Sequence record: PZ379075.1
DNA length: 64,000 nucleotides
Origin: a phage
Reading direction: 5' to 3' (one strand)
Positions within the stretch are counted from its first letter, which is position 1. Every line of letters starts with the position of its first letter. Positions 2,584 through 41,052 of this stretch are shown in pieces. Made by a program: the position numbers and the translations under genes. Below the pieces are notes generated by a model that worked only from the letters and a program-made list of their open reading frames with translations, was not told the DNA's origin and made no database searches.

Positions 2584-2969
2584 GCTTAATCTTTCTCCTG
2601 TATTGTGCCGTAGTCATGCCTATGGTCATAATCTATCTGATGCTTTAAATCCTTCCTATAAGCCTCGCTATGAGGCTTTTTTCTTTTCTAAGGTGATTGT
2701 ATACCTTACTCCCTTTTAGCTCATTGTGATGCGTTATAGGCCGCTTGTTATCGCTTTACAAGCCTTTTCCTATGATGTATCACGTTCGCCCGCTCTTTTA
2801 CCTTCCTATAGTGAAAAAGTTTAAAATATTTTGTTTTACCCTATTGCATCCCTCACTGATTAATGTATACTTCATTTCATCGGGTACGATGTAAAACATA
2901 CAAGGCAAGGAAACTTGCCCCGCTCTTTAAAAATCAGGCTAGAAAGTGAAAATATTCTTAAAAAGAGTA

Positions 2970-3602: not shown

Positions 3603-3631
3603 TTGACAGCGAAAACAACATGATTCATAAT
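3603..3631 (+). promoter_or_regulatory. strong sigma70-like promoter (TTGACA - 17 nt - CATAAT), paralogue of promoter at 2970
   Basis: TTGACA at 3603-3608, spacer GCGAAAACAACATGATT nearly identical to promoter at 2970, -10 CATAAT at 3626-3631. Confidence 0.6.
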
Positions 3632-5999: not shown

Positions 6000-6209
6000 A
6001 TGATCACTAACATTTCAGAGTTTAAGAAAGCTCCCTCTCGTCTGTTAGGCCGTCGTGTAGTGTATCTTTATAGCAATAAAGGTAAATGTACAACCGGACG
6101 AATTACAACGGTGAGTAGTGCCAATAAGAAACTACTAAAATTATGTGTAACTATGGATGACGGTACAATCCTTCTACGTAGTTGGAAATCGTTTAGTTTA
6201 CTTGATTAA
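6000..6209 (+). CDS. hypothetical small protein (69 aa)
   Basis: ORF from track. Confidence 0.35.
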   Translation: MITNISEFKKAPSRLLGRRVVYLYSNKGKCTTGRITTVSSANKKLLKLCVTMDDGTILLRSWKSFSLLD

Positions 6210-6278
6210 GTTATTTGTTCAAGCCTATCGACTTGATGGGCTTGCCCGATATAACTTATCACTGGAAGGAATAAGATT

Positions 6279-6722
6279 GTGGCTAAATCTAAAATCAGCA
6301 TGAAGGGCGGGCGTTGTTTTGCTATCTCTGAACTAGAGAAAGAGAAACCGAAGGCAACTAATCACGTTAGTAAGCGTAGTTTAAAACGCCGTGCTGCAAA
6401 GGCTGAGGCTGAATCCCATGTTCCTTCCAGTGTGGCAAAACGTGTAGGCCATCGTGTCCATCGTGCTGATGCGTTGTTGTTAGCTGATCATAAACGTTCT
6501 TTGTTACAGAGCGGGGGCGCTAAAACAGAAGAAGAGAAGAAGTTAGAAATCTTCTGTAATGGTCGCACCCGTGGTAAACAGAAGTTTAAGGGTAGCACGA
6601 AAGACCCTCAGGCATTCCCTAAGACAAGCCAGTGTGCACCTGATGTTTTCTACGCAGATAGTAAACACAAGTGGGGCGTTGAGAAATACATTGACCCCAT
6701 CAAAGAGGCAAGGGTTAAGTAG
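6279..6722 (+). CDS. hypothetical highly basic protein (147 aa), possibly nucleic-acid binding
   Basis: Lys/Arg-rich ORF; non-ATG (GTG) start in track, real start uncertain. Confidence 0.45.
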   Translation: MAKSKISMKGGRCFAISELEKEKPKATNHVSKRSLKRRAAKAEAESHVPSSVAKRVGHRVHRADALLLADHKRSLLQSGGAKTEEEKKLEIFCNGRTRGKQKFKGSTKDPQAFPKTSQCAPDVFYADSKHKWGVEKYIDPIKEARVK

Positions 6723-6802
6723 TAGGAATATAGCCCCCTCTTTTAGTACTATGACGCTCTTTCTGTAGCGTCGTGCCCTCTCCCCATTTGAAGCTTCCGC
6801 AT

Positions 6803-6856
6803 AGCCGCCTTTGGGCGGCTTTTTGCGTTACCGCCTCCTTAATTGGAGGCTTTTTT
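6803..6856 (+). terminator. two tandem rho-independent terminators
   Basis: GCCGCC-TTTG-GGCGGC + TTTTT, then GCCTCC-TTAATT-GGAGGC + TTTTTT. Confidence 0.65.
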
Positions 6857-6882
6857 GTATCTATTATATAGGAAACCATGAA

Positions 6883-7695
6883 ATGAAAGCATTTGCATTG
6901 TCAGCTATTCTAGTTTTATCTGCCATTAGTGCCCCATCCTTTGCTCATTCTGACAAATGCTCACACTCTAAACAGTGTGAAGTCCAGCAGGGGCCGAAAG
7001 GTGATAAAGGAGAACAGGGTATTCAAGGCGAACAAGGTCCGAAAGGTGACAAGGGTGATCGCGGAGAGCAGGGCTTAAAAGGTGATACTGGATCGGCTGG
7101 CATCAATGGTAAAGATGGCATCAATGGTAAAGATGGCATTGATGGTAAAGATGGCATTGATGGTAAAGATGGCATCAATGGTAAAGATGGCATCAATGGT
7201 AAAGATGGCATTGATGGTAAAGATGGCATTGATGGTAAAGATGGCGCTCAAGGTGAAAAAGGTGATTCTGGTGCAGATGGTAAGAAAGGCGAAACTGGCC
7301 TAACTGGTGCAGCAGGTTTGAATGGCGTTGACGGATTAAATGGCAAAAATGGTAAAGATGCAGATATGTCTGCCGTTAATGCTAACGCCAAATCTATCAA
7401 AGCTCTGGAACAATCCACCAACAAACGTTTTGCTTCTTTGCAAAAACAAGTAGACCGTAACCGTGATCATGCCTCTGCTGGTATTTCTGGCGTGGCTGCA
7501 ATGGCTAACATCCCGCAAGTAAGTCAAGGATCTGCTTTCTCTGTTGGTGCTGGGGTAGGTGCTTACGATGGTGAATCTGCTCTTGCTATTGGTGTTAGTG
7601 CTCGTTTCAATGAAAACGTAGTAACTAAAGCATCAGTGGCAATGACTTCAGAGAGTGACGCTGTTCTGGGCGCTGGTGTAAGTTACGAGTGGTAA
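6883..7695 (+). CDS. secreted collagen-like repeat protein with YadA-like (trimeric autotransporter) C-terminal membrane anchor
   Basis: Signal peptide MKAFALSAILVLSAISAPSFA; about 50 Gly-X-Y triplets; C-terminal segment ending GAGVSYEW matches YadA-anchor beta-barrel signature. Confidence 0.65.
   Translation: MKAFALSAILVLSAISAPSFAHSDKCSHSKQCEVQQGPKGDKGEQGIQGEQGPKGDKGDRGEQGLKGDTGSAGINGKDGINGKDGIDGKDGIDGKDGINGKDGINGKDGIDGKDGIDGKDGAQGEKGDSGADGKKGETGLTGAAGLNGVDGLNGKNGKDADMSAVNANAKSIKALEQSTNKRFASLQKQVDRNRDHASAGISGVAAMANIPQVSQGSAFSVGAGVGAYDGESALAIGVSARFNENVVTKASVAMTSESDAVLGAGVSYEW
7100..7243 (+). repeat. Tandem 18-bp repeat GGCAT(C/T)(A/G)ATGGTAAAGAT x8 (encodes GI(N/D)GKD collagen units)
   Basis: Direct reading; causes spurious antisense ORFs 7023-7229 and 7082-7303. 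Confidence 0.85.
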
Positions 7696-7702
7696 GATAG
7701 TG

Positions 7703-7729
7703 CCTCTCCCGAAAGGGAGGGGTGTTTCT
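7703..7729 (+). terminator. rho-independent terminator
   Basis: CCTCTCCC-GAAA-GGGAGGGG hairpin plus T-rich tail. Confidence 0.6.
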
Positions 7730-7805
7730 ATAAGCATCTTTTCGAGGGTGTTTATTGAAACAACAAAACAGGAGGTAGCAAGTTCTGATAACAACGGCAC
7801 AGCTA

Positions 7806-8195
7806 ATGTTGACATTGACTATTTATTATGAGGCAGGGAATCAGCCAACCGCATGTAAGGCTTTAGTTGCGGATACCGTGATAAATAGAATGGCCCAACG
7901 AAAACTGACCGCTGAACAGGTGATAAGACAAAAGAACCAGTTTGAGTGGATTCCGGTACTATTAAAACAGGAGAAACCTTATAAACGTTATGTAAAGCTG
8001 ATTCGTGATAAAAATCCGATGACTAAGCAAGCCATTGGAGAAAGCGAGCGACTTGCTAAACGTGCCCTTAAGAAGAATTATGTTCCGCTGTACAGTGGGA
8101 CTTACTTTCAGAGTAAGAGCGAAGGGGTGCCAAAATGGTATGCCAATCCTATGTATTGTGGTGATTTAGTGTTCGATAATAGCTCTAGGGAATAA
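7806..8195 (+). CDS. SleB/CwlJ-like cell-wall hydrolase domain protein
   Basis: Motif IYYEAGNQ...ALVADTVINR resembles the EARGE...VxNR signature of the SleB-type hydrolase family; frame is open from 7779. Confidence 0.45.
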   Translation: MLTLTIYYEAGNQPTACKALVADTVINRMAQRKLTAEQVIRQKNQFEWIPVLLKQEKPYKRYVKLIRDKNPMTKQAIGESERLAKRALKKNYVPLYSGTYFQSKSEGVPKWYANPMYCGDLVFDNSSRE

Positions 8196-8395
8196 TCACT
8201 AGTGCCAGATTTGACAAACTAAATTCCTTTATAAACCAACCACTTAGTAAATTTATTGAAAAAGATGGCAGTATTCTGGGACTATGGGTAATGCTCTGTA
8301 TATAGACCCTTTGAAAATTTCTTAGAAAATAAGTTTACTAAATATAACTTACTTAAATAATATTACTTTTAATCTCTGATAAAAGGGTAAATAAT

Positions 8396-8692
8396 ATGAC
8401 TTTAGAAGTATATAAATTCCTTTTTGTAAGCTGTTTAACTATCAGCGTTCTAGGATTTATTATTCTCAGAAACAAAGCAGCAAGCTGGGAGAGAATGTAT
8501 AAATCCCTAGTTCGAGTGGATGAGATGTATAATGAGAAAGTTAAAGTAACACTTAACGATCTTATTATGCAAGTAGAGGACAGAAACAAGCGTCTTCAGA
8601 ACCTCAACCACGAAGTGTTACGCCTTGCTCGTGCTAATGAAGACTTGCGAGTGGCTATTGCTAAACAGCAGGAGATTAACAATGAAGCATGA
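8396..8692 (+). CDS. hypothetical protein with N-terminal TM helix and coiled coil (98 aa)
   Basis: Hydrophobic N-terminus FLFVSCLTISVLGFIIL followed by charged helical region. Confidence 0.5.
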   Translation: MTLEVYKFLFVSCLTISVLGFIILRNKAASWERMYKSLVRVDEMYNEKVKVTLNDLIMQVEDRNKRLQNLNHEVLRLARANEDLRVAIAKQQEINNEA

Positions 8693-40639: not shown

Positions 40640-41052
40640 ATATCCTTTACTTTTTAGCTTTCTTAGGAATAATCTTTTTATCTATTATTCTTGAATTTGG
40701 TTTAAGTAGGTTAGTTAATTATTTAGGTAATAAGTAATTAATATTCTTTTAAATAGAGAATCAAAGTCCCTAGGAGTCCCTACAACCTAAATCAAGGATT
40801 CCTTAATTCTCTATTTTTATCTCGCAGGTGGCTCCTGCCCTTCGGTACTTGCAAGGGATTCTGTGAATTGCCCAATATACAAGCCTGCAATAACTTTATC
40901 AGCTATACAATATATACATTACTAGTGTGTTATATCTACTACCAAAGATACTTATATTATATAGTACTCTTATCGGTATAAGCGTAATGTATACTATACA
41001 TAACCGCTCAAAGAGAGCAACAATCTTTCAAATTAAATAAGGAAATTAAAAT
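40640..41052. promoter_or_regulatory. AT-rich 400-bp intergenic region with 11-bp inverted repeat (40751-40761 / 40806-40816) and TAATGTATACT motif (40988)
   Basis: Direct reading; candidate promoter cluster or replication origin upstream of SSB-like gene. Confidence 0.4.

Follow-up and report, generated by a model that had tools for sequence, protein, structure and literature searches.

A phage early-region gene encodes a predicted headless trimeric autotransporter with a collagen-like stalk

We analysed a 64,000-nucleotide stretch of phage DNA (sequence record PZ379075.1, one strand, 5′ to 3′; hereafter the window), which carries in its early region a gene for a small collagen-repeat protein. 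In molecular identity, this protein is very probably a trimeric autotransporter (type Vc secretion) that would be displayed on the host outer membrane. From its N-terminus, the chain comprises a signal peptide, a short distal tip, a collagen-like region, a long predicted α-helix and a four-stranded membrane anchor (Table 1), an arrangement close to that proposed by a first-pass annotation, which had read the gene as a phage-encoded collagen-repeat protein with a signal peptide and a YadA-like outer-membrane anchor.

Table 1. Features of the autotransporter gene and its flanks (window coordinates; aa, amino acids; nt, nucleotides)
Feature	Position	Strand	Description
First upstream hairpin	6803..6825 (stem-loop 6803-6820)	+	AGCCGCC-TTTG-GGCGGCT plus T-run; -19.4 kcal/mol, z -3.96
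Second upstream hairpin	6833..6856 (stem-loop 6833-6850)	+	GCCTCC-TTAATT-GGAGGC plus T6; -12.6 kcal/mol, z -4.76
Ribosome-binding site	6870..6875	+	AGGAAA, read from sequence; 7 nt 5′ of ATG
Whole coding sequence	6883..7695	+	270 aa plus stop; predicted collagen-stalked headless trimeric autotransporter, ortholog of phiEco32 gp119
Sec signal peptide (signal peptidase I type), aa 1-21	6883..6945	+	Predicted cleavage between SFA and HS; hydropathy and -3/-1 rule
Distal tip, aa 22-36	6946..6990	+	HSDKCSHSKQCEVQQ; 15 aa, two Cys as C-x5-C
Collagen-like region, aa 37-159	6991..7359	+	41 uninterrupted Gly-X-Y triplets; ~35 nm if triple-helical
18-nt tandem repeat	7098..7245	+	8.2 copies, 95% matches; codes for 8 GI(N/D)GKD units
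Long α-helix, aa 162-208 (~47 aa)	7366..7506	+	AlphaFold2 prediction; putative coiled-coil stalk or neck, would enter barrel lumen
YadA-type membrane anchor, aa 211-270	7513..7692	+	Four β-strands (aa 219-268), terminal W
Downstream hairpin	7703..7720	+	CCTCTCCC-GAAA-GGGAGG, weak T-tail; -18.3 kcal/mol

The signal peptide (MKAFALSAILVLSAISAPSFA, followed by HSD) was called heuristically from its n-, h- and c-regions and the −3/−1 rule. Its n-region is basic, its hydrophobic core spans about 15 residues (Kyte-Doolittle 11-mer means reach 2.58) and S-F-A occupies positions −3 to −1, in line with the cleavable signal suggested earlier, and MKAFALSAILVLSAISAPSFA contains no lipobox. Searches with the Collagen and YadA_anchor models, which the first-pass annotation had named as a check, matched both families far above their cut-offs. 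The collagen match (Pfam PF01391) has E=6.1e-22; the count of triplets has to be lowered from the 'about 50' first given to 41, whereas the eight GI(N/D)GKD units were indeed found, as a tandem repeat in the DNA. The X and Y positions of this region are 54% charged, with 2 Pro and 8 KGD/KGE-type pairs, and the rod carries a net charge of −6 per chain.

The anchor matches Pfam YadA_anchor (PF03895) across the entire profile (positions 1-60 of 60) with E=2.2e-19 and 69.7 bits against a cut-off of 22.7, and the NCBIfam matches were confined to the YadA and BimA models, at their C-terminal ends. The chain ends in ...GAGVSYEW, with an aromatic terminal residue. Such a C-terminal aromatic residue is a signal for insertion that depends on the β-barrel assembly machinery (BAM), and a C-terminal YadA-type anchor is the one feature common to all trimeric autotransporter adhesins. 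At E≤1, Pfam detected nothing beyond Collagen and YadA_anchor in the 270-aa protein, and found in its passenger, where just 15 aa precede the collagen region, none of the head, neck or coiled-coil stalk repeats of YadA. As judged from its domains, the protein is thus a headless trimeric autotransporter without the 'lollipop' build of YadA, in which a collagen rod replaces the long coiled coil.

Comparisons with solved structures also identified the C-terminal part as an anchor of this type. In a phmmer search of the PDB, the last 111 aa align end to end, terminal W included, with the anchors of YadA (2lme, E=6e-9) and Hia (2gr7, E=8e-6; 2gr8 and 3emo were also matched). We modelled the last 121 aa as a monomer with AlphaFold2 from an 11-sequence alignment; the model (mean predicted local distance difference test score 77.6) consists of one long helix (residues 13-59 of the fragment) followed by four strands (70-79, 82-92, 97-106 and 111-119). 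The top five PDB matches in Foldseek were all trimeric-autotransporter anchors, from Hia, AtaA and YadA (template modelling scores 0.54-0.80; 3emo, 2gr7, 9vnj and 2lme among them), and the transmembrane domains of these three proteins were the only significant matches among solved structures. The predicted long helix aligns with the helix of the YadA and Hia anchors. The model thus bears out the YadA-like anchor ending in GAGVSYEW that had been suspected from the letters, and places a coiled-coil helix and a trimeric-type anchor directly 3′ of the collagen region, where they may serve as a nucleation domain that sets the collagen register.

The window belongs to a virulent, phiEco32-like Kuravirus of E. 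coli, and orthologs of the gene are found in close relatives of the phage. Window region 6700-7900 matches about 100 phage records, nearly all of them from members of the phiEco32 group (Gordonclarkvirinae, Kuravirus) that infect Escherichia or Shigella, and the best matches, EcP-vB, EcM-vB1 and EcK-vB, are 96.7-96.8% identical over the full length. The genes in phiEco32 (gp119), EcP-vB and EcM-vB1 share the locus, the flanking genes and the terminators, and their C-terminal 111 aa are 99-100% identical to those of the window protein. The phiEco32 ortholog (phi32_119, ABY52920.1) has been an 'agglutinating adhesin' in GenBank since 2008 and is a 'tail protein' in RefSeq, the orthologs of EcP-vB and EcM-vB1 are named 'YadA-like protein', and a yadA homologue of phiEco32 was already listed in a 2013 paper (PMC3728262). 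The exact 270-aa sequence was absent from a collection of 15 billion proteins; what is new is therefore the allele, the phage autotransporter itself being already annotated in relatives. To those annotations we add the triplet count, the headless collagen-stalk design, two tip modules, the length polymorphism, a replacement scar and the breadth of the family.

Of the 99 phage records with the neighbouring Hydrolase_2 gene (7806-8195), which served as the reference for counting carriage, 15, representing 13 phages, also contain the 3′ part of the autotransporter gene, and the other 84 (~85%) lack it; in all 13 Kuravirus carriers the open reading frame (ORF) is intact. In pEC-N1203-2Af.1 and 172-1, two of the three non-carriers examined, the slot holds a 105-aa HTH_37 protein. 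At the right junction, homology restarts at TGGTGTAAGTTA, the final G-V-S-Y codons of the autotransporter (within window 7672-7695), and the HTH_37 ORF uses these last codons to end in ...GDGVSYK before its stop. Since GAGVSYEW is native to the anchor family, the GVSY scar in the helix-turn-helix (HTH) ORF shows that the autotransporter is ancestral at this locus and that in the HTH carriers the cassette is a replacement of a pre-existing autotransporter gene.

Among the carriers, the gene varies chiefly in its N-terminal module and its stalk length. The window and EcP-vB have the same signal peptide and tip (type A), whereas phiEco32, SkaterBoy, phiEc_1, Ec3 and KM01 carry a type B module with its own second hairpin, signal peptide and tip (KSGNNGNGNGGC-x8-CG...), homology to type A restarting inside the collagen repeat. 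The seven complete alleles have 41 (window), 37 (EcP-vB), 34, 30, 28, 22 (phiEco32) and 12 triplets, and the 18-nt tandem repeat is the source of this polymorphism. The C-terminal 111 aa show 0-2 differences across nine alleles; the five residues between the tip cysteines, with 3-4 differences, are the most variable part among close alleles, and the cysteine pair itself is present in the Kuravirus A, Kuravirus B and N4-like variants. The 18-nt repeat also breaks assemblies, and ShigP1 has a run of Ns within it. The MN03 record stops inside the gene, leaving a 125-aa fragment without a signal peptide as the annotated ORF, and PGN6866 and FS2B match from residue 122 onward only, near the record end.

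The same design extends well beyond Kuravirus. A tblastn search with the C-terminal part found 79 phage records, which include Kuravirus, N4-like Ithacavirus, Ackermannviridae (SKML-39), the T4-like phiR1-RT, jumbo phages (GAP32, Munch and Aeromonas D3) and others. In seven proteins sampled from unrelated virulent phages, the chain without exception begins with a signal peptide and ends in an aromatic residue, and the sampled homologs range from a total of 122 aa, with almost no passenger, to passengers of more than 500 aa. We also searched a large protein collection clustered at 90% identity; the full-length query proved far more informative here than a word-indexed search with the C-terminal 111 aa, which returned 13 matches. 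Among the best 120 matches to the full-length query, 119 have the Collagen plus YadA_anchor architecture; a signal peptide is present in 115 of these and a terminal W in 118, the triplets number 12-58, and a cysteine pair occurs in every tip type. Judged by the longest contigs, most of the 119 lie on phage-sized contigs (~45, 70-73 and 76 kb), and of the two contigs inspected one proved to be an N4-like phage carrying Ter genes, the other a 45-kb myovirus. Relatives labelled 'hypothetical protein [Salmonella enterica]' mostly lie on contigs of ~71-72 kb, the size of N4-like Ithacavirus, and are probably phage contigs filed inside bacterial assemblies.

Over the C-terminal 111 aa, the highest identities found (65-71%) are to proteins from other phages or from metagenome contigs, and the anchors of enterobacterial chromosomes reach 55-69%. 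Bacterial genomes mostly match either the anchor alone (Leclercia at 69%, then Enterobacter, Cedecea, Scandinavium and others) or the collagen alone, and the bacterial matches sit in chromosomal contexts. In the contexts examined there was no recurring partner gene beside the autotransporter, as would fit a self-sufficient autotransporter. A blastn search with the gene found no match in 5,426 complete E. coli genomes, and an E. coli prophage or host origin was rejected on this result. The gene was likely captured from an enterobacterial autotransporter and then spread among phages. Its likely source is the chromosomal collagen autotransporters of Ewingella americana and others, in which GIDGKDG-type units are likewise followed by GKDADM, a coiled coil and an anchor related to the one here (identity of 57% over aa 37-270); they differ in their length (419 to ~590 aa) and in their extra N-terminal and coiled-coil regions. 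Enterobacterial-type YadA anchors with 54% identity are also encoded on short contigs assigned to Modestobacter (517 bp) and Herbiconiux (962 bp), where they are almost certainly contamination.

The genomic setting places the gene among the early genes, as had been claimed. Sigma-70 promoter matches of 11/12 lie on the plus strand at 636-663, 2970-2998 and 3603-3631, and a strong terminator (2660-2678, plus strand) follows the first small operon, together reproducing the published early-promoter layout of phiEco32 and SU10, in which one promoter precedes the first early gene and several lie in a spacer (PMC4281155). Early and middle genes are transcribed opposite to the late structural genes (PMC8948821). 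This layout and the strand put the autotransporter gene in the early block, ~3.2 kb downstream of the sigma-70 promoters; its temporal class, and its absence from phiEco32 virions, are based on this position and on secondary sources.

The gene also lies between terminators, as first described, with two hairpins and T-runs upstream, although the downstream hairpin has a weak T-tail; the z-scores of the three range from −3.7 to −4.8. The first hairpin stands just 3′ of the preceding gene (gp120 homolog, 6279-6722) and is kept in 7/7 relatives aligned, with or without the autotransporter gene. The second lies 13 nt 5′ of the ribosome-binding site, and phiEco32-type alleles have a hairpin and T6 of other sequence at its position. 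The downstream hairpin persists in HTH-carrying relatives, in which, as read from the alignment, substitutions on both stem arms preserve pairing, and the motif CTAYTRTATAGGAAW is kept 5′ of the cargo gene in the aligned relatives.

Between the terminators and the ATG, a sigma-70 scan found no promoter, and the phiEco32 gp36 promoter consensus TAATGTATA had no match with ≤1 mismatch. Just 5′ of the ribosome-binding site, TATTATATA (6862-6870) agrees with the gp36 consensus tAATGTAtA at 7/9 positions, and the equivalent sites of phiEco32 (TACTGTATA) and pEC-N1203 (TATTGTATA) do so at 8/9 each. TATTATATA may be a weak phage-sigma promoter, but the match is too poor to support such a claim, and transcription starting 6-8 nt 3′ of a site of this type would delete the ribosome-binding site, which makes the promoter reading doubtful. 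As a working assumption, the gene may be transcribed by read-through of the terminators. No RNA element was found by Rfam in window 6000-8600 at E≤0.1, and PADLOC gave no defence-system match for the protein.

By analogy with YadA and Hia, these features suggest how the protein would be assembled. The phage would make the infected E. coli cell produce a small headless trimeric autotransporter, the signal peptide routing each chain through Sec, after which three four-strand anchors and BAM would form a 12-strand barrel in the host outer membrane. Three helices, followed by the collagen region, would thread outward through this barrel, and the 41 triplets, zipping in the C-to-N direction, would form a triple-helical rod ~35 nm long, capped by the 15-residue Cys-loop tip; the coiled coil and the barrel would keep the three chains in register, and so enable the triplets to zip. 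Tentatively, we suggest that the rods act as a steric brush projecting beyond the O-antigen, which would alter the surface of infected cells and their debris and thereby limit adsorption. Such a brush would restrict competing phages or the phage's own progeny, and stalk length would be tuned to the host glycan layer through repeat slippage. The Kuravirus receptor consists of O-antigen and lipopolysaccharide core, with no protein receptor (PMC11990801), which makes specific receptor masking unlikely and leaves non-specific steric shielding as the plausible form of this idea. Set against the envelope proteins that exclude superinfection or block receptors (T5 Llp, Cor and TraT-like proteins), for which early synthesis is characteristic, the window gene is early by position but stands behind two terminators. 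We rank such shielding slightly above aggregation or adhesion, holding both with low confidence.

Several observations weigh against this picture. The structure prediction covers the monomer alone. The repeat units place K in X and D in Y, unlike the stabilising KGD/KGE order, and with 2 Pro in the whole region, stability of a triple helix at 37 °C cannot be assumed. Some phage homologs are nearly anchor-only (phiR1-RT g139, 122 aa), and a rod mechanism cannot explain these. The absence of the gene from most close relatives makes it dispensable for infection. With two terminator hairpins directly 5′ and no clear promoter of its own, expression may be low, which sits poorly with a dense brush. 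Finally, the literature searched gave no expression, localisation or phenotype data on the protein, only lists of phages with yadA homologues, and candidate papers on collagen-bearing autotransporters proved to deal with other protein types.

The strongest competitor, which we consider possible but doubtful, is that the protein is an agglutinating adhesin, whose rods stick infected cells to neighbours, gut mucus or epithelium and so release the burst beside fresh hosts. Trimeric autotransporters are the family richest in autoagglutinins, and EibA aggregates cells even without a YadA-like head (PMC7568254). The variable tip and the A/B exchange of the N-terminal part resemble a ligand-binding end, the eight identical charged units form a strictly periodic surface that could pair laterally, and relatives of this phage group are gut-adapted. 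However, YadA autoaggregation maps to head and neck (PMC7568254), so that head-mediated aggregation of the YadA type is not possible for a protein without a head; furthermore, the mature tip has just 15 residues, the negative charge of the rod opposes self-association, and the position behind two terminators suggests low expression here as well.

It is improbable that the gene is a captured host adhesin of no benefit in the lytic cycle, a poorly expressed neutral cargo that is being lost and whose repeat variation is mere slippage. The patchy carriage, the GVSY codons that survive in HTH-carrying relatives and show a gene once present and then replaced, the two terminators directly upstream and the related anchors of enterobacterial chromosomes (including the collagen-containing autotransporter of Ewingella) would all suit such a history. 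Against it stand, among the Kuravirus carriers, uniformly intact ORFs, a near-invariant anchor and a conserved signal peptide and cysteine pair. The compact architecture is also shared by at least 119 clusters at 90% identity, most of them from phage-sized contigs and from phage groups unrelated to one another, with a signal peptide and a terminal W in nearly all, a pattern that is hard to reconcile with neutral decay. With the closest relatives found in phages or metagenomes, and one bacterial anchor (that of Leclercia) as close, the pattern suggests a phage-adapted lineage.

We reject, as barely credible, the remaining idea of a virion tail fibre or tail protein with a collagen shaft and a C-terminal trimerisation module. 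In its favour, the best PHROG match is phrog_26246 ('tail protein', E=4e-90), many collagen-containing tail-fibre PHROGs match, the orthologs in phiEco32, SkaterBoy and Ithacavirus go by 'tail protein' or 'tail fibers protein' in RefSeq, and collagen repeats are common in phage fibres. However, a virion that assembles in the cytoplasm is not expected to contain a protein with a cleavable Sec signal peptide and an outer-membrane β-barrel anchor. The gene belongs to a block of early, non-structural genes that run opposite to the late ones, and the 84 records that lack it share the virion module; among these is SU10, whose virion proteome and structure were described without such a protein (PMC4281155, PMC11990801). 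The PHROG label was apparently transferred on the strength of collagen similarity, and 'tail protein' in both RefSeq and PHROGs is a mislabel.

Set beside known systems, the window protein resembles YadA of Yersinia and Hia of Haemophilus in its signal peptide, its C-terminal helix with a four-strand anchor and its terminal aromatic residue. In contrast to these, it is small (270 aa), has a Gly-X-Y rod in place of a long coiled coil and is encoded by a virulent phage, whereas the YadA and Hia genes are chromosomal or lie on virulence plasmids. Closer in build are the 'agglutinating adhesins' of the Ithacavirus phages FSL SP-058 and SP-076, which are of similar size and share the signal peptide, the Cys-pair tip, the coiled coil and the GAGVSYEW end; they have 33-57 triplets, their C-terminal part is 66% identical, and their gene likewise lies in a non-structural region (PMC3728262). 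These phages belong to the unrelated Schitoviridae, and their proteins differ in a larger tip (~55 aa) and in their gene neighbours (dUTPase and Ter genes).

The Eib proteins, too, are phage-borne trimeric autotransporters on the E. coli outer membrane; Sandt and Hill reportedly described these immunoglobulin-binding proteins as prophage-encoded in 2000. On E. coli, they cause autoaggregation and chain formation (PMC7568254). They act in lysogenic conversion by temperate phages and have YadA-like heads, coiled-coil stalks and immunoglobulin binding, whereas the window gene belongs to a virulent phage and its product has no head and a collagen stalk. The models of the streptococcal Scl1/Scl2 and Legionella Lcl proteins match the collagen region at E ~1e-20, far below the family cut-offs, and the window rod is, like theirs, a Pro-poor, charge-rich bacterial collagen that needs an adjacent trimerisation domain. 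This domain is N-terminal in Scl and C-terminal in the window protein, and the anchoring differs as well, Scl being held in the cell wall by LPXTG and Lcl peripherally, as against an outer-membrane barrel here.

A virulent phage is seldom regarded as altering the outer surface of a cell that it will soon lyse, and known exclusion proteins are small lipoproteins or inner-membrane proteins. If the autotransporter is made in the lytic cycle, phages can use the host Sec and BAM machineries to build a long fibre on the infected cell, and the repeated appearance of this compact design among virulent phages that are unrelated points to a selectable benefit. More speculatively, and with considerable doubt, collagen-stalked mini-autotransporters could be a phage-adapted family of infected-cell surface modifiers exchanged among unrelated virulent phages of Enterobacterales (Kuravirus, N4-like Ithacavirus, E217-like myoviruses and others), a class previously unrecognised. 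Each member would plant a length-tunable rod of 10-50 nm with a hypervariable Cys-loop tip in the outer membrane within one lytic cycle, and would serve to exclude competitors, to stop progeny from attaching to infected cells or debris, or to hold infected cells close to new hosts; through repeat slippage, the rods would come to match in length the O-antigen or capsule of whichever host is being infected. Should it play no part in the lytic cycle, the gene is a captured host gene of little consequence. In practical terms, Kuravirus phages are used in therapy cocktails, and this gene routinely draws a 'virulence' adhesin flag or the wrong label of tail protein; the protein may also serve as a minimal self-exporting scaffold for the surface display of bacterial collagen.

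We note some further features of the surrounding DNA. The 129-aa product of the Hydrolase_2 gene in the early region (PF07486, Cell Wall Hydrolase, E=1.7e-7; plus strand) is annotated variously among relatives as hypothetical or as a cell wall hydrolase, and a gene of this family also lies near the autotransporter gene on one N4-like phage contig. A 43-aa ORF at 7700-7831 on the plus strand (phi32_118 in phiEco32) begins inside the downstream hairpin and overlaps the hydrolase start; it is probably not a real gene. ORFs on the minus strand or in other frames within the autotransporter gene (for example 7023-7229, 7075-7251 and 7082-7303) were rejected as read-throughs of the 18-nt unit. Exact matches to TAATGTATA number five in the window (2861, 34616, 40913 on the minus strand, 40985, and 50816 on the minus strand), and matches with ≤1 mismatch are no commoner than chance across it; four matches of this type lie on both strands within 40904-41003, an arrangement that resembles a divergent middle/late promoter region. 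Finally, a two-codon mini-ORF (ATG AAA TGA, 6878-6886) overlaps the true start (ATGAAATGAAAG) and is kept in alleles of either type, perhaps incidentally, perhaps with an influence on translation initiation.

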